A stretch of 64,000 nucleotides of DNA, taken from sequence record AB910393.1; one strand, written 5' to 3'. A model generated the notes under the pieces. That model made no database searches, was not told where the DNA came from, and worked only from the letters and a program-made list of their open reading frames with translations. Origin of the DNA: Pseudomonas phage KPP25. Shown one piece after another: positions 25,802 to 47,818 of this stretch. Each line of letters begins with the position of its first letter. Positions within the stretch are counted from its first letter, which is position 1. A program made the translations under genes and the position numbers.

Positions 25802-26218
25802 ATGGACATCACTATGGACATCATCAAAAGCAACACCAACGAAGTCGACACCGACGCTGTAATGGAAGAACTCCACAACATCATGGCCAGCTACGCCGAG
25901 CGCGGCATATTCCTGTCGCTCTACTTCACCACCAACATCGAAATCGTCAACAAGGACGGCAACGATTACGGCTTCCGTGCTGCACGCGGCATGGTCAGCG
26001 TACCGGGCTGGGTGCATGGCGGTGGTATCGGCGCTGTCCTGAGCGCTATGGGTGAAGGCGTCGAGTTCACCGACAACCCGATCACCCTGGTGATGCGCGC
26101 TGCTCAACATGCCGCGGCGCACCAACAACTGATCACCGAGCACATGAATCAGGTGGGCGAAATCGGCCTGATCCAGCTTGTGGATAACTCCAAGTTGGAC
26201 GTGGTGAAAGCCGACTGA
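25802..26218 (+). CDS. Hypothetical protein, 138 aa.
   Basis: ORF with an in-frame ATG. Confidence 0.5.
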   Translation: MDITMDIIKSNTNEVDTDAVMEELHNIMASYAERGIFLSLYFTTNIEIVNKDGNDYGFRAARGMVSVPGWVHGGGIGAVLSAMGEGVEFTDNPITLVMRAAQHAAAHQQLITEHMNQVGEIGLIQLVDNSKLDVVKAD

Positions 26219-26242
26219 TTTCCGCACGTGTGTGAGGGGATC

Positions 26243-26275
26243 GGAGGGGGCCGACCCGCCCCCTTCTCCCCTCCG
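26243..26275 (+). terminator. Candidate terminator hairpin (AGGGGG-ccgacccg-CCCCCT) with a weak T/C tract.
   Basis: Direct inspection. Confidence 0.35.
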
Positions 26276-26339
26276 CCCTTTCTGTATCGATCGCTAACCT
26301 AAGTGGTTGTTTCTTGAAACCAATTAGCTTTTTCTATCG

Positions 26340-26880
26340 CTGTAACGCTTTCGTTCCAAACAGGATGAGACTGACTCTCAACAACCGTCACGATGTTACG
26401 AAATTCCGTCCACCGACGAAAATTTCGTAACACGCTCCAGCCCAGGCAGCACTAGGGGCACAGAGCTTTCTGTTACGATGTTACGATCTTTTCTTCTTTA
26501 TTCCACTACAGAAAATAAAAAAATAATAATAGATATAGTTAATAAGTATATAGGGCCACATATACACTGTATCTGTAGCGGAATAGCGCAGAACTTCGTA
26601 ACATTCGTGACAAAAGTGGCTCAAACCCGCGTGGCACTAAGGCTCCAGCGTGTTACGAAATTTTTTGAGATCGTGACAATCGTGACAAAATTTCCCGGCC
26701 AAAACCCCGCAAACCCGCGTGGCACTAAGGCTCCAGCCTGTTACGAAATTTTTTGAAGATCGTGACAAAACCTCGGTGTCACCCGGCACAAACCCGCGTG
26801 GCACTAAGGCTCCAGCGTGTTACGAAATTTTTTATGCACTTTCCGTCACTCCGTGACCAGATCCTTCATTTCAGTCATCC
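26340..26880. promoter_or_regulatory. AT-rich composite repeat cluster A, a candidate early promoter array and/or replication origin.
   Basis: It contains GTTACGAAATT paired with AAATTTCGTAAC as a palindrome, a GTTACGATGTTACGAT direct repeat, CTTTATTCCACTACAGAAAATAAAA with an A/T tract, and CGTGACA repeats. It also has three tandem 79-87-bp units each carrying the CGCGTGGCACTAAGGCTCCAGCGTG motif. A homologous cluster lies at 58230-58560. Confidence 0.6.
26624..26870 (+). repeat. Three tandem units (starts 26624, 26711 and 26790) of AAACCCGCGTGGCACTAAGGCTCCAGCGTGTTACGAAATTTTTT.
   Basis: Direct inspection. The three cores are identical except for a single g/c difference. Confidence 0.8.
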
Positions 26881-27510: not shown

Positions 27511-28587
27511 ATGCCGAGCTACGCCGATTACCCCATGCCTACTAAACACAAACGCTTGATCACCAAAGTCGAGGTATCGAAAGCGTTCGAGGCTGATCTG
27601 GACAACCACCTCCCGGTAGTGAGTGAATTGGCCAAGGTCAGAACCTACGCAGACTATGGACTGCGTGGCACGTCCAGCTACGACTCGTATGTGAATGGTT
27701 TCGACTTCGACAAGTCCAACGCTCCCGACGCTATTCCGTATATCGGCTCGAAGGCCCAACTCGCCAAAGCCAGGACACAACACCATGGCTTGTTCGACAA
27801 GCACGTGTTCAACCTGGCTTTGGCTCGTCACAACCCCAACCCCGGCACCCTCATGAAACCTTCTAGAAGCCGACTCGACCGGTCCATGTGCTACAGCCAG
27901 TTCACCGACTGCTTCTTCGACGACTGCCTTTTTCAAAACATCGATATAGTCGACGCAACATTTACGAACTGCGTTTTCTTCGGTTGCACGTTCAACAACT
28001 GCGCTAGCTACCGCACCAAGTTCGTCAACTGCATTTTCCTCAGTACGTTTTTTCAAGAAGGCAAGTGGGCGAACGCCAAATTCACCGGCTGCAAAATGTA
28101 CAGGGTACGCTTCTGCCTATCGACACATTCCGTCTCTACGTCGATGCCACAACTCGAATACGTTCAGTTCTACATGTCGAAACTCGTAGACGTAACCTTC
28201 GAAGGCGATATCTTCTATGACACTATCTTTCCGATGTCCCACTTGATCGGCGTGGCCCTGATAGATGTCGACCTAGCGAACGTGGATATGCGCACAGCAC
28301 TCCACGTCGACATCGAAAGCATGCGCGGATGCAGGCTCAGCCGACCGAATCCGACGCAGTTCATGTCGATGAACATCCACGACTACCCGATCGTGTACAC
28401 CTCGAACGTCATACAGATCGGTTGTCAGGCGTTCAGCATGGACCAGCTACGCCACTGCATCAGCATGGAAACGCAGGAGCTGTACCAGCTGGCTTCCGAT
28501 GCGCCGAGATTGGTGAAAGCCCACCTGAAGTGGCTGCTCAAGACCATCGAGCGCTTCAAACCCAAGCCGCTCCCGTACGAGTGCTGA
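27511..28587 (+). CDS. Pentapeptide-repeat protein, 358 aa.
   Basis: About 20 consecutive A(D/N)(L/F)xx-type repeats (TDCFF DDCLF ... VNCIF). It has an AGGAG RBS. Its GC content is markedly lower than its neighbours. Confidence 0.7.
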   Translation: MPSYADYPMPTKHKRLITKVEVSKAFEADLDNHLPVVSELAKVRTYADYGLRGTSSYDSYVNGFDFDKSNAPDAIPYIGSKAQLAKARTQHHGLFDKHVFNLALARHNPNPGTLMKPSRSRLDRSMCYSQFTDCFFDDCLFQNIDIVDATFTNCVFFGCTFNNCASYRTKFVNCIFLSTFFQEGKWANAKFTGCKMYRVRFCLSTHSVSTSMPQLEYVQFYMSKLVDVTFEGDIFYDTIFPMSHLIGVALIDVDLANVDMRTALHVDIESMRGCRLSRPNPTQFMSMNIHDYPIVYTSNVIQIGCQAFSMDQLRHCISMETQELYQLASDAPRLVKAHLKWLLKTIERFKPKPLPYEC

Positions 28588-29361: not shown

Positions 29362-29667
29362 ATGAGCAATTCCAACGACACCACCACCACCAGCACCATC
29401 ACCACCATCCTCCCCGATGATGTCGCCGCCGTAACCCCCGGCTCCATCCCGATGTCCTACTACCGCCTGCTGGCCCTGCGCGCACAGCTGCGCATCCAGG
29501 CCGCTGGCATGAAGACCCGTAGTGGCTCGATCCGCAAGAAGATCGCTGCCGAACTCGGACTCAAGCCCAGGGACAGCTACGAAGTCTTCATTGCTCGCAT
29601 CAATGAACTGATCGAAGAAGCCAAGCTGCGCGCCGGACAACGCGCTGGTGTGCTGCCCAAGGATTGA
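29362..29667 (+). CDS. Hypothetical protein, 101 aa.
   Basis: ORF. Confidence 0.45.
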   Translation: MSNSNDTTTTSTITTILPDDVAAVTPGSIPMSYYRLLALRAQLRIQAAGMKTRSGSIRKKIAAELGLKPRDSYEVFIARINELIEEAKLRAGQRAGVLPKD

Positions 29668-29679
29668 CTGGAGAACGTA

Positions 29680-30336
29680 ATGCTCGACAAGAAACGCGAC
29701 CGAATCCTCGCCAACCAGACCCCGCATGCGCGGAAGGTCTACGAATGCGTACCGATAGCTGAACCCTGGCCGGCGCACCAGATCATGGCGCAGTTGAAAG
29801 TCGATCGTGGTTCTGCCTTGAGCGTCGCGGTGGTTCGTGGCTGCTTGAAGGCTCTGCACGAAGCTGGGCTGATCCGCCGGCCGACCAGCGATCTGTACAT
29901 CCGCGAGAAGGTGACTGAATCGGCGGCCGCCACGATCGCCGAGCAGATGGACGAAACCGTCGCCGACTACAAACGCACAAAGCCAGCCCAGCCAGCCCAG
30001 CCAGCCCAGCCAGCCCAGCCAGCCCAGCCAGCCCAGCCAGCCCAGCCAGCCCAGCCAGCCCAGCCAGCCCAGCCAGCCCAGCCAGCCCAGCCAGCCCAGC
30101 CAGCCCAGCCAGCCCAGCCAGCCCAGCCGAAGGAACCCAGCATGTCCACCTCGATCGACACCCTGCTGAAAATCGCACAGCAGCTTTCTGTCCTGGCCGC
30201 CGAAGTCGAAGAGAAGCTGTCGGAGATCGCATCCGAGATCGAGACGGCGGCCAAGCAGGTCGAGTCCACCACCGCGGCCGATCGTGAGCAGCTGGCCAAG
30301 CTCAAGCAGCTCCAGTCTCTACTGAAGGATCTGTGA
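29680..30336 (+). CDS. Winged-helix DNA-binding protein with a (PAQ)n linker and a C-terminal coiled coil.
   Basis: GGAGAACGTA RBS. It has an N-terminal wHTH-like segment. The 9-bp repeat is translated as PAQ. Confidence 0.55.
29982..30128 (+). repeat. Perfect 9-bp microsatellite (CCAGCCCAG), about 16 copies in 147 bp.
   Basis: Direct inspection. Confidence 0.9.
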
Positions 30337-30590
30337 CCATGATCAAGACCAGAAAAGAGCCGCGCAGGGATCTCGAAGAGATCCGCCGCAAGCACGAAGA
30401 GTACATCGCCGCGCACAAGGCCAGCGGCGGTGTAACCCAGGTCTACCAATGCCCGTTCTGCGCCCAGCAGATCGAGACTGCATCACCGTCTACCAAGCAC
30501 AACATGTGGGACACCATGACGAGTTGCCCCTGGTGCGATGGGCTGCATTTCAAGCGCGTGTATTTCACGCACGTCGAGGTAAGAGTATGA
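30333..30590 (+). CDS. Small Zn-finger protein (CPFC...CPWC).
   Basis: ORF. Confidence 0.45.
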
Positions 30591-31197: not shown

Positions 31198-31489
31198 ACC
31201 TGTCCCTCAGAAGATCACCATCGAAGGTGATATCGCCACGAACGTACGCAAGCGCGGGTATCGGTTCGTACGCCGCTTCGGTTCCATACCGACTCCCGGC
31301 GACGAAGGCTCGTCATCCACCACCACGTGGCCGGTGCTGCTCTGGCAACACGCTGTCTACCCGGATCGGTTCGCTGTGTCGTACGGTGCCGATCTTACCT
31401 ATTGCCTGGACTGGGTACAGGCGGCCGAACGACTCGGCGCTGCTCTGCTCCATGCCACAACTGTCGACGGGAAAATCAACGATGACTAG
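31187..31489 (+). CDS. Hypothetical protein, about 100 aa. The start is uncertain.
   Basis: ORF. Confidence 0.3.
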   Translation: MTTKPVPQKITIEGDIATNVRKRGYRFVRRFGSIPTPGDEGSSSTTTWPVLLWQHAVYPDRFAVSYGADLTYCLDWVQAAERLGAALLHATTVDGKINDD

Positions 31490-32048
31490 CAGCAGACAAC
31501 TCAAGTTCGGTTCGTACATTTCCGGCACCATGCGCACGCAGGATCTGGTGCCGAAGTTCTTCGAGATCCTGATGTCGGTATCGACGAACGCTGTGTACCA
31601 GATCGTGCTGACCAGGGCATTCGAGGACGACATTTCGCTGCCTGATCATTGGCTCTTCGAAGCTATTACGGACGAAGAATGGCCGCACGACGACCACGGT
31701 TGGTGGTCCTCTGTCGAAGCTGCGGAAATGGTCGATGCGCTGATCAACGCGCTTCAGGACTTCGTGCCGGTGGGTCACTACTTCGGCGCGCATCCTGGCG
31801 ATGGTTCGGACTTCGGTTGCTGGCGCTTCGAGGACTCGCATCTGTTCACCGTGTTCGTACGCCAGAGTAACAACGAAGGCACCACGTACGTCGAGTCGGT
31901 GTGGACGAGTAACGCCACCGAAGCCGCCGAGATAATCCTCGCCAACTGCGCCAATGCGTGGGAGCGCCCCGCATCGGAACTGCGCGTACTGGGCATCATC
32001 GCCAGCGAGGCAGAAATCGAAGTCGTTGAATGGAACGACGAGGAATAG
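31482..32048 (+). CDS. Hypothetical protein, 188 aa.
   Basis: ORF. Confidence 0.5.
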   Translation: MTSSRQLKFGSYISGTMRTQDLVPKFFEILMSVSTNAVYQIVLTRAFEDDISLPDHWLFEAITDEEWPHDDHGWWSSVEAAEMVDALINALQDFVPVGHYFGAHPGDGSDFGCWRFEDSHLFTVFVRQSNNEGTTYVESVWTSNATEAAEIILANCANAWERPASELRVLGIIASEAEIEVVEWNDEE

Positions 32049-47234: not shown

Positions 47235-47456
47235 ATGAGCGTGACGTTGTACCAGAGCGAACTGATGCGGTGTGAGAATTTGCAGACGGGCAACGTCACG
47301 TACTACATGCAGGTGTGCAACGCGATGCGGAGGATTTCCAAAGCCGAGTACGACGAGCGCTACACCAAGGCTGACGGTCTGACCTGTCTGTACACCAAGA
47401 GAAGTAAACGTTACTGCCGGCATTACCTTACCCTGCTCTACGAGGTGGCGAAATGA
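47235..47456 (+). CDS. Hypothetical protein, 73 aa.
   Basis: AGGAG RBS. Confidence 0.5.
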   Translation: MSVTLYQSELMRCENLQTGNVTYYMQVCNAMRRISKAEYDERYTKADGLTCLYTKRSKRYCRHYLTLLYEVAK

Positions 47457-47818
47457 AGCTCGACAAGATTGCGGCATTGCCTTTCCCTACTTTACAAGGT
47501 GGCGAAATGAAGTTCGACAAGATTGAGTACAGCGTATGCAACGATTGCTTGCTCTTCGTGGCGGACGGTGAACCGCCGGAGAACGGTGCCGACATAGAAG
47601 CCGCGATGCGACGAGAGATCGGCGAAGCGAAGAATGCGTACTTCGTGTGCGGCGTCGAGCCAACCGAAGATGACCCCGATGGGATCGGTGAAAACGAATT
47701 CAGCTGGCAATGGTGCGAACTTTGCCTGAGCACGCTCGGTGGTAGTCGCTACGGCGTGACGTTGATGATACCCCTGGAAGAAGGAACCGAGGATGGCAGC
47801 GCCGAAGAGCCGGACTAA
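47453..47818 (+). CDS. Cys-rich hypothetical protein, 121 aa. It has an alternative in-frame start at 47507.
   Basis: A duplicated block AGGTGGCGAAATGAAG(C/T)TCGACAAGATTG occurs at 47443 and again at 47497. Confidence 0.45.
   Translation: MKLDKIAALPFPTLQGGEMKFDKIEYSVCNDCLLFVADGEPPENGADIEAAMRREIGEAKNAYFVCGVEPTEDDPDGIGENEFSWQWCELCLSTLGGSRYGVTLMIPLEEGTEDGSAEEPD

Follow-up and report, generated by a model that had tools for sequence, protein, structure and literature searches.

Wootton and Drummond are said to have described the Q-linkers of bacterial regulators in 1989, and other variable Pro/Gln-rich spacers include the (Glu-Pro)n(Lys-Pro)n stretch of TonB and the Ala/Pro-rich linkers of 2-oxoacid dehydrogenase E2. 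These resemble the locus described here in being low-complexity Pro/Gln tethers between folded domains, poorly conserved in length and sequence and largely replaceable. They differ in that they are usually not perfect DNA repeats, and we know of no case among them of 5-fold length variation between near-identical genomes. The Ser-Asp repeats of the staphylococcal Sdr/Clf surface proteins are reportedly coding VNTRs. Like the present array, they are in-frame minisatellites of strain-variable copy number that alter the length of a stalk or spacer, whereas they form surface stalks exposed to host immunity and the protein considered here is an intracellular phage protein. Borg extrachromosomal elements carry perfect in-frame tandem repeats (aaTRs) that create disordered regions (PMC9879509). 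Borg aaTRs share with our locus the features of recent, fast-evolving perfect repeats with a unit divisible by three, encoding disordered low-complexity segments in a mobile genome; unlike it, they occur genome-wide, are A-enriched and reside mostly in extracellular or membrane proteins (PMC9879509). In the phage, by contrast, a single C-rich array dominates, and the protein that carries it is cytoplasmic and a predicted DNA binder.

The window, meaning the whole 64,000-nucleotide stretch analysed, represents a complete, wrapped 63,687-bp Kochitakasuvirus genome, phiR18-like and infecting P. aeruginosa. The array lies in an ORF at 29680..30336 (plus strand, stop codon included) encoding a 218-aa protein of the PHROG 4405/D3 Orf76 family. 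Residues 1-218 matched profile positions 1-167 of the 168 in PHROG 4405 (E=6.2e-59), and orthologues are annotated in 3/3 sequenced relatives (phiR18, YMC17/07/R4900a and CRPAP1904). Because of this full-length match and of the annotation in all three relatives, the ORF is, as judged by comparison, a real gene. Its annotated start is preceded by a Shine-Dalgarno (SD) sequence, GGAG, located 6 nt upstream of the ATG.

The family is an uncharacterised phage family of ∼1,566 clusters at 50% identity, from which D3-like, CP2-like and Arace01-like proteins were recovered by reciprocal profile searches. Residues of both end domains that are invariant or at least 90% conserved in an 87-sequence alignment are present in the window's protein (for example A17, K19, V20, P25, E28, W30, G63, L64, Q210, L211, L214 and L215). 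All members share the same plan, in which a ∼75-aa N-domain is followed by a variable linker rich in Pro and charged residues and then by a C-terminal helix that ends in KLxQLQxLLKxL; the Kochitakasuvirus members differ from the others in encoding the linker by a 9-bp DNA repeat. In five phage lineages the family gene has replication or recombination genes as neighbours. In the window the gene is located on the plus-strand arm, upstream of replication genes, a position that fits an early or middle gene and agrees with its earlier description, from the letters alone, as an early gene.

No Pfam or NCBIfam family reached its cut-off (HTH_12, 13.1 versus 21.4; RepL, 12.4 versus 20.3; HTH_24 and HTH_IclR at E ∼0.03), and no PDB sequence matched at the curated threshold. 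The full protein also matched glutenin, amelogenin, SSB linkers, TraD, DNA polymerase III tau and the like, and these matches were disregarded as artefacts due to the low complexity of the PAQ tract. When IMG/VR and JGI metagenome contigs were scanned with the protein, all hits were low-complexity AQP look-alikes and none was an orthologue; the window's own protein was absent from a 15-billion-protein collection, and exact-protein look-ups of both flanking gene products found nothing. Neither Rfam families nor tRNAs were detected in the window, scanning 26-31 kb for promoter and terminator consensus sequences gave nothing informative, and papers about Kochitakasuvirus phages make no mention of the repeat.

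Tandem Repeats Finder (TRF) identified the array, (CCAGCCCAG)x16.4, at 29981..30128 on the plus strand (148 bp, period 9, 100% matches, 0% indels, score 296), by a wide margin the strongest repeat of the whole window; other repeats of the phage genome lie at 26.6-26.85 kb. The 18-mer CCAGCCCAGCCAGCCCAG occurred 15 times, every time within the array, against 0.01 occurrences expected from shuffles. The array is in frame with the ORF, and the protein reads K-(PAQ)16-PKEPS. The sequence-only reading had announced a perfect intragenic repeat of about 16 copies of 9 bp encoding a (Pro-Ala-Gln)n linker, as found here; its perfection stood while its length of 147 bp became 148 bp by TRF, and the 9-bp unit stood while the term microsatellite did not, such a unit being strictly a short minisatellite or VNTR. 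Since identical units follow each other head to tail and the unit length is a multiple of three, we refer to the array as a VNTR. CCA accounts for 16/16 Pro codons in the array; its share in 12 neighbouring genes is only 3%. Use of a rare codon for every Pro suggests that a single DNA unit was amplified, rather than that selection acted on codons.

Comparison with related phages revealed extensive variation in copy number. The phiR18 orthologue contains ∼3 units, P0001/P0063 4, YMC17/07/R4900a 6 and CRPAP1904 7, in genomes whose proteins are 93-99% identical outside the linker. Truncated contigs added alleles of at least 7 and at least 10 units, the latter mixing PTQ and PAQ. Length polymorphism across related genomes, which had been put forward as a check on the idea of a variable linker, was thus observed, with alleles of ∼3, 4, 6, 7, at least 10 and 16 units. 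At the equivalent site, a KPP25-like sister clade carries a decayed 9-bp array (8.3 copies, 77% matches) using different codons, indicating that the repeat locus is old and turns over. Linkers of 87 family members ranged from 14 to 79 aa (median 29), the 79 aa of the window's protein being the maximum. Among 249 family proteins, no other has a peptide repeat exceeding 3 units, and no linker DNA repeat was found in family members outside the genus Kochitakasuvirus. At least 8 independent public contigs start inside the array, presumably owing to the presence of a long perfect repeat, where short-read assemblers fail; runs SRR12301228, SRR22387883, ERR3281038 and ERR13656236 are among those whose contigs break at the array. 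These breaks are compatible with heterogeneity inside a population, yet are accounted for by repeat length alone.

To describe the regions joined by the repeat, we used an AlphaFold2 model run with the 87-sequence alignment; a single-sequence AlphaFold run, which gave a pLDDT of ∼40 for the N-domain, was set aside. In this model residues 1-78 (29680..29913, plus strand) form an N-terminal domain with pLDDT 81-91 and the order H15-23, E30-31, H32-43, H49-62, E65-66, E72-75, that is, a leading helix and a winged helix with a beta wing at 64-75. The best Foldseek matches in the PDB were Fur/Nur/PerR, MecI/BlaI, Rok, HrcA, ORC1 and ASFV I73R (probability ∼1.0, E 4e-3 to 3e-2), and those in BFVD were viral MarR/ArsR/HTH proteins. 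The family profile gave a weak PDB match to MarR-type ZitR/AdcR (E ∼0.01) and to SlyA. The predicted domain therefore displays the helix and strand order, the beta-hairpin wing and the structural neighbours of a winged helix, in keeping with the winged-helix-like N-terminus proposed from the letters. With a net charge of +5 and a basic wing it is probably a DNA-binding head, although winged helices can mediate protein contacts as well. Specific membership of the MarR, Fur or BlaI families was rejected, scores being under Pfam/NCBIfam cut-offs and the C-terminal half being a single helix with no Fur or MarR dimerisation domain. A similar plan is found in KfrA of IncP plasmids, which combines a winged-helix DNA-binding N-terminus with a long coiled-coil tail. 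We regard KfrA as a functional analogue only, since Pfam KfrA_N matched the phiR18 orthologue alone and below its cut-off (E=0.009, 17.1 bits versus a curated cut-off of 26.1 bits).

Downstream of the N-domain, a helix was predicted with low confidence at residues 81-97 (29920..29970, plus strand; pLDDT ∼53). In the protein alignment this segment varies among alleles, and its distal part is missing in YMC17/07/R4900a and CRPAP1904. The repeat linker itself, residues 100-154, has a pLDDT below 50, predicting disorder between the two predicted domains. Residues 155-218 (30142..30336, plus strand) constitute the C-terminal module, of net charge -4, modelled as one 63-residue amphipathic helix (155-217, pLDDT ∼90). 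Hydrophobic periodicity peaked at 3.5 residues (power 2.2, versus 0.2-0.9 at other periods), and the heptad a/d register MILALAVLIIAVTDQLLLL is almost entirely hydrophobic. Profile searches of the PDB gave weak matches to designed coiled coils and to the syntaxin SNARE helix. The helix is thus a probable coiled-coil oligomerisation module, as had been suspected. Taken together, alignment and modelling supported the three-part anatomy given by the sequence-only reading, together with its variation between isolates.

The explanation we favour, with considerable confidence, is that of a hypervariable in-frame coding VNTR in the disordered interdomain linker of an early or replication-region phage protein, undergoing slippage-driven, near-neutral changes in length and recently subject to a large expansion. 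Array size would most likely change by replication slippage or unequal recombination among identical 9-bp units. As one unit corresponds to three codons, each change keeps the frame and alters spacer length alone. Spacers across the family differ greatly in length as well as in sequence, so that gains and losses of units would be nearly neutral and quick to accumulate; this near-neutrality is deduced from the tolerance seen across the family. The present phage, with 16 perfect units in the assembled record, would represent an unusually recent and large expansion. Placing Pro at every third residue would make the linker an extended, flexible tether, and extra units would lengthen the reach of the DNA-binding heads from the oligomer core. 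The repeat is real, and is an ordinary kind of hypervariable coding repeat.

Linker length could instead be tuned adaptively, which is the strong form of the tunable tether proposed in the sequence-only reading, with diversifying or directional selection acting, for instance, on the spacing of DNA sites bridged by the oligomer or on contacts with a host factor or with a defence system, and the VNTR serving as a device for evolvability. Many distinct alleles exist among very similar genomes, the repeat locus has been kept in two clades of the genus, and the Borg in-frame perfect repeats that create disordered regions have been argued to be under strong selection (PMC9879509). The 14-79 aa of unrelated sequence accepted across the family, however, fit relaxed constraint at least equally well, and the rare Pro codon found throughout the array is what a purely mutational expansion predicts. 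Complete alleles are few, and we consider adaptive tuning unlikely.

The region immediately downstream of the array raised the question of a second product. An SD-like site, AAGGAA (30130..30135, plus strand), lies 6 nt upstream of an in-frame ATG, that of Met155, at 30142 and 13 nt past the array end, defining a putative internal start. Its calculated anti-SD duplex energy was -5.7 kcal/mol, compared with -6.4 for the annotated start, within the top 7% of in-frame positions. An equivalent SD and ATG arrangement exists in D3, Rb1, CP2, 8P and the KPP25-like clade. On at least 8 contigs beginning inside the repeat, a 64-aa gene is called at Met155. The presence of an SD and ATG right after the array suggests that the locus may be more than a passive spacer.

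This segment also appears to move between phages. Comparison by blastn and tblastx with contig L004 delimited a 233-bp cassette at 30107..30339 (plus strand), comprising the last ∼2.4 repeat units, the SD, the ATG, the coiled-coil module and the stop. The cassette is 98.3% identical in L004, an otherwise unrelated O4/PA11-like (Paundecimvirus) contig, and is the sole match between L004 and the window; elsewhere, L004 shares 91-93% identity with phages O4, HHBS10_2 and PA11. The protein P0008 is a chimera with the N-terminus of O4_51 and the C-terminus encoded by the cassette. These identities argue for horizontal exchange of the C-terminal cassette between phages. Neither this exchange nor the internal SD and ATG figured in the sequence-only reading. 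A split copy in PACT201 was considered as a natural two-gene version and rejected, its scattered frameshifts being best explained by sequencing error.

One gene might yield two products, with translation from the SD-like site and the Met155 ATG giving a 64-aa, coiled-coil-only protein of ∼7 kDa that would co-assemble with the full-length protein or antagonise it, and with the C-rich, weakly structured repeat RNA acting as leader. A precedent is SinI, which according to PMC3163267 is a short protein consisting of the oligomerisation helices of SinR alone and antagonises SinR. SinI would parallel the hypothetical 64-aa product, the two systems differing in that neither SinR nor SinI showed homology to the phage protein. 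Although family linkers are otherwise unalignable, Met is present in 76/87 of them and E-x(1-3)-M in 72/87. In six lineages a purine tract resembling an SD precedes the ATG by 5-7 nt and ranks within the top 3-21% of in-frame positions, and Fisher combination of the six lineage values gave p ∼0.003. Gene callers chose the Met155 start on the truncated contigs, the exchanged cassette begins just upstream of the SD, and RNA internal to the array had no significant structure (z = -0.8, centroid unpaired). Against this, K/Q-E-P-x-M may be conserved as a peptide motif, in which case its codons would look SD-like automatically. Moreover, SD strength is moderate, the Met is missing from ∼13% of the family and stands ∼20 residues ahead of the helix in D3-like proteins, and the cassette in the foreign phage is still fused in frame to the upstream ORF. 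A second product appears doubtful, on a par with adaptive tuning.

An extended version would make the locus a two-output regulatory module, in which the short form from Met155 heteromerises with the full-length protein and modulates it, in the anti-repressor-like manner of SinI. The repeat would then be both tether of the long form and leader of the short one, its copy number altering reach and perhaps the ratio of products, and the SD-ATG-coiled-coil cassette would be portable by recombination in the repeat. We hold this scheme to be improbable.

Equally improbable, in our estimation, is that the 16-unit copy number is an assembly artefact, the array existing and its length having been mis-estimated by the assembler. 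A perfect 148-bp array is at or beyond the common short-read span, the contigs that break (at least 8 public assemblies) do so at exactly the array, and no other fully assembled allele exceeds 7 units. Yet the flanks are unique and the wrapped genome is closed, and assemblers err more often by collapsing repeats than by expanding them. Furthermore, long alleles do exist, as the truncated contigs with minima of 7 and 10 units show.

A very improbable proposal is that the array acts in cis as DNA, either as iterons or an origin lying in the linker code of an initiator's own gene, or as a structure-forming recombination hotspot. Lambda ori sits inside gene O, whose architecture (DNA-binding N-domain, repeat-encoded linker, C-domain) is analogous. 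Family genes are located in replication modules, a recombination junction falls within the array, and slipped hairpins are possible in the complementary, G-rich strand (MFE -35 kcal/mol, z = -6.9), although the hairpin centroid is unpaired. However, the unit is just 9 bp, the copies vary from ∼3 to 16, the sister-clade array is degenerate in DNA, and the linker repeat is missing from family members outside the genus. The flanks are GC-rich with no adjacent AT-rich unwinding region, and cumulative GC skew reaches its extremes at ∼24 kb and 44-46 kb rather than at 30 kb. Skew, flank composition and the unconserved copy number and sequence led us to discard an origin of the lambda O/ori type.

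Finally, although perfect tandem repeats in coding regions are a classic substrate of bacterial contingency loci, an on/off phase-variation switch through repeat-number change is extremely improbable here, because slippage by a 3-codon unit leaves the reading frame intact, every complete allele is in frame, and the sole broken copy found, that of PACT201, shows the scattered frameshifts typical of sequencing error.

The hypervariable linker VNTR is a clean and verifiable coding VNTR in a lytic, therapeutic-type Pseudomonas phage. Its single array is the site at which short-read assemblies of Kochitakasuvirus genomes break, and it could mark strain type or passage stability in phage-therapy stocks, for example of phiR18 and relatives. 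The analysis also draws attention to a large uncharacterised family, of predicted winged helix plus coiled coil, in phage replication modules. The natural allelic series, from ∼9 to 48 repeat-encoded residues, provides a ready-made experiment on tether length in what is predicted to be an oligomeric DNA-binding protein, and the conserved putative internal start and the swapped cassette offer testable hints of a modular, possibly dual-product gene.

Analysis of the 64-kb window with Tandem Repeats Finder identified one outstanding array, located at 29981-30128, with a period of 9 bp, 16.4 copies, 100% matches and no indels (score 296; the runner-up scored 174). The two-unit 18-mer occurred 15 times, always inside the array, against 0.01 occurrences expected from dinucleotide-preserving shuffles. 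The array is in frame with the 218-aa ORF 29680-30336(+), translated as ...YKRTK-(PAQ)16-PKEPSMSTS.... These results confirmed the coordinates, unit and copy number proposed by a sequence-only reading, the array measuring 148 rather than 147 bp. All 16 Pro codons of the array are CCA, which is the least used Pro codon in 12 neighbouring genes, at 3% of 143. This exclusive usage marks the array as the amplification product of a single DNA unit. The complementary G-rich strand is predicted to fold into slipped hairpins in many different ways (MFE -35 kcal/mol, z = -6.9, centroid unpaired), compatible with slippage-prone DNA. Folding of the repeat transcript gave no significant structure, and neither Rfam features nor tRNAs were found in the window.

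The ORF matched PHROG 4405, of unknown function, over its whole length (E=6e-59). Relatives recovered by tblastn and profile searches included phage D3 Orf76, CP2 ORF31, Arace01 gp44 (automatically annotated 'HrcA'), proteins of Xanthomonas phage Rb1, P. stutzeri phage 8P and a Burkholderia phage, and many Pseudomonas prophages. An exhaustive profile search recovered 1,566 clusters at 50% identity with E<=1e-3, 808 of them with E<=1e-30. All members share a common plan: an N-domain of ~75 residues, a linker that cannot be aligned and is rich in Pro, Lys, Glu, Gln and Ala, and a C-terminal helix of ~60 residues ending in KLxQLQxLLKxL.

AlphaFold2 modeling with an 87-sequence alignment predicted a leading helix and winged helix in residues 1-78 (H15-23, H32-43, H49-62, beta wing 64-75; pLDDT 81-91), disorder across the repeat (residues 100-154, pLDDT <50) and a single continuous helix in residues 155-217 (pLDDT ~90). 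Foldseek placed the N-domain beside winged-helix DNA-binding domains in the PDB, namely Nur/Fur/PerR, MecI/BlaI, Rok, HrcA, ORC1 and ASFV I73R (probability ~1.0, E from 4e-3 to 3e-2), and beside MarR-, ArsR- and HTH-type phage proteins among viral models. The family profile matched MarR-type ZitR/AdcR (E ~0.01) and, more weakly, SlyA and ribosomal protein eS25. No Pfam or NCBIfam family reached its curated threshold for the repeat protein, so the models support a winged-helix fold but not membership of a named regulator family. In the C-terminal 64 residues, hydrophobic periodicity peaked at exactly 3.5 residues and one heptad register gave MILALAVLIIAVTDQLLLL at the a/d positions, indicating a predicted canonical coiled coil. 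Both the winged-helix-like N-terminus and the C-terminal coiled coil anticipated from sequence thus stand as predicted folds. The N-domain carries a net charge of +5 and the C-helix of -4.

Gene neighbours point to a family role in replication, recombination or their regulation, since the gene lies directly 3′ of the DnaB helicase gene in D3 and D14O, 3′ of exonuclease and SSB genes in Usme and CP2, and 5′ of a VirE-type primase gene in Burkholderia phage vB_HM795. In D3 and D14O it is also followed by a small DksA/TraR-type zinc-finger gene, and one lies nearby in Rb1. Here the next gene 3′ (30339-30590) encodes an 83-aa protein with CxxC...CxxC (PHROG 3786; Phage_Mu_gp6 of Pfam in contig tables), and the two genes may form a conserved pair.

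Window bases 63688-64000 are identical to bases 1-313, showing that the window is a single complete genome, written circularly, of 63,687 bp plus the wrap. It is collinear from position 1 with YMC17/07/R4900a, and its start base is that of GenBank OK094707.1. The repeat-gene region shares 92-95% DNA identity with Pseudomonas phages phiR18, YMC17/07/R4900a and CRPAP1904 (genus Kochitakasuvirus). Structural genes occupy the minus strand, and a long plus-strand arm (~24 kb to 54.6 kb) carries small genes, then an AAA ATPase, a D5-type primase, helicase, DNA polymerase, exonucleases and lysis genes. The repeat gene lies ~3 kb into this arm, a position from which it can reasonably be inferred to be an early or middle gene.

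Upstream of it, at the head of the arm, is a low-GC, repeat-rich intergenic region (26200-26850) with an AT-rich patch at ~26510-26560. It holds three direct copies, 97-100% identical, of a 45-59-bp element (26622-26679, 26710-26768 and 26789-26833), of which an inverted 35-bp copy occurs at 58282-58316; a further 49-bp element is shared between 26467-26515 and 58330-58378. These elements probably serve as repeated promoters, operators or an origin region, and the predicted winged-helix protein is a candidate to bind them. Among the first plus-strand genes, 27511-28587 encodes a 358-aa pentapeptide-repeat protein (Pfam Pentapeptide_4, Pentapeptide_3), a candidate for host takeover or anti-defence because such proteins can be DNA mimics. 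The phiR18 and CRPAP1904 orthologues of 31482-32048 bear the annotation 'cysteine desulfurase, SufS subfamily'. This looks unfounded: the 188-aa protein had no Pfam match at E<=0.01 and matched solely a PHROG of unknown function.

An in-frame ATG (Met155, 30142) lies 13 nt 3′ of the array, preceded at 6 nt by AAGGAA (30130-30135), with a predicted anti-SD pairing of -5.7 kcal/mol, compared with -6.4 at the gene's own start. A Met with Glu 2-4 residues upstream was present in 72 of 87 otherwise unalignable linkers. Purine-rich SD-like tracts precede the linker ATG by 5-7 nt in six lineages (window/phiR18, the KPP25-like clade, D3, Rb1, CP2/Usme and 8P), each in the top 3-21% of in-frame positions (Fisher combination, p ~0.003); Arace01 has a weaker tract. 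This suggests a putative internal start, whose product would be the coiled coil alone; alternatively, it is a peptide motif that is conserved, and its codons resemble an SD by chance. With a rare codon at every third position, 16 in all, the array could slow translation immediately upstream of this putative start. In Pseudomonas phage PACT201 (PP931175.1, 780-1420), one annotated fragment of a D3-type family gene begins at the linker Met (MAEPAK...). Several frameshifts break this gene across three frames, which looks more like uncorrected sequencing error than like two natural genes.

Comparison of relatives confirmed the length polymorphism foreseen in the sequence-only reading. Orthologous proteins are 93-99% identical outside the linker, within which phiR18 and three metagenomic copies have ~3 units (QVQ-PAQ-PAQ), the orthologues P0001 and P0063 have 4 (one PAQ more than phiR18), YMC17/07/R4900a has 6 (two PTQ, four PAQ), CRPAP1904 has 7 (two PTQ, five PAQ) and the window has 16 perfect PAQ. 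A truncated contig (L008) carries at least 10 mixed CCAACCCAG / CCAGCCCAG units, and orthologue P0062 has the variant PAQPAQPDQ. At the same site, a KPP25-like sister clade has a decayed 9-bp array (8.3 copies, 77% matches, different Pro/Ala/Gln codons), showing that the repeat locus is old in the genus; the 16 perfect units of the window are best read as a recent expansion. No peptide repeat of more than 3 units was found outside this genus among 249 family sequences.

As the best-supported mechanism, the array would grow and shrink by slippage or unequal recombination, the VNTR unit being three codons. Each in-frame change would merely lengthen or shorten a disordered tether, in which every third residue is Pro, between a probable DNA-binding head and a coiled-coil hub. 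A polyproline-II-like extended conformation spans ~3.1 Å per residue; so extended, the 48 repeat residues would add up to ~150 Å of contour, and the two to three units of phiR18 ~20-30 Å. Strong 'tuning' of linker length, as the earlier idea of a tunable tether implied, is improbable, since the family tolerates any linker between 14 and 79 aa (median 29 in 87 members, the window being the maximum), which argues for relaxed constraint on the linker.

Independent runs yielded at least 8 contigs that begin inside the array, one of them 63,021 bp and nearly a whole genome, and 64-aa family 'proteins' are the C-terminal module called on such contigs. The locus is thus a breakpoint of short-read assemblies for these phages, and long alleles are under-represented among complete sequences. 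That the exact number 16 is itself an assembly error is quite unlikely, as L008 independently supports long arrays. Phase variation is incompatible with a unit of 9 bp, and an origin or iteron role is unsupported: neither the sequence nor the number of the units is conserved, the array lacks an AT-rich flank, and skew extremes lie at ~24 and 44-46 kb.

The array also marks an exchange. A metagenomic phage of O4/PA11 type (Paundecimvirus; contig L004) is otherwise 91-93% identical to O4 and matches the window solely over 233 bp (30107-30339, 98.3% identical DNA), from the last ~2.4 repeat units to 3 nt beyond the stop codon. There the cassette takes the place of the C-terminus in the O4_51 homologue, and the resulting chimeric gene, joining an O4_51 N-terminus to the Kochitakasuvirus coiled-coil module, was found in three sequencing runs (L004 1495-1977, and contigs L005 and L006). 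Sequence comparison thus indicates that unrelated P. aeruginosa phages have recombined recently; the coiled-coil module is an exchangeable unit, and the junction of this recombination lay in the repeat/linker.

The genome holds other short repeats. At 47418-47525, a 54-bp unit is tandemly duplicated (copies 88% identical), each copy bearing a GGTGG SD-like site and ATGAAG(C/T)TCGACAAGATTG; YMC17/07/R4900a is apparently one unit (54 bp) shorter, and this appears to be a second tandem-repeat length polymorphism. Just upstream of the repeat gene, gene 29362-29667 contains a (CAC)n-like triplet run (29379-29407, 9.7 copies) encoding the Thr-rich tract NDTTTTSTITTI. This gene measures 306 nt in the window and phiR18 and 300 nt in YMC17/07/R4900a and CRPAP1904, so that the genes as a whole differ by two codons.

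Functionally, the PAQ tract can be likened to Q-linkers, the TonB spacer and E2 Ala/Pro linkers; genetically, the array is akin to the coding VNTRs found in surface proteins of bacteria. Another parallel comes from Borg elements, where perfect in-frame repeats give rise to disordered regions (PMC9879509). Published papers on Kochitakasuvirus phages make no mention of the repeat. We conclude that this is a real coding VNTR, strongly polymorphic, within the linker of a phage protein family that is very widespread but uncharacterised. It has practical value for assembly, typing and stock stability of therapeutic phages, and experiments could usefully draw on the series of tether lengths that its natural alleles provide; the putative internal start and the exchanged cassette would add value, if confirmed.
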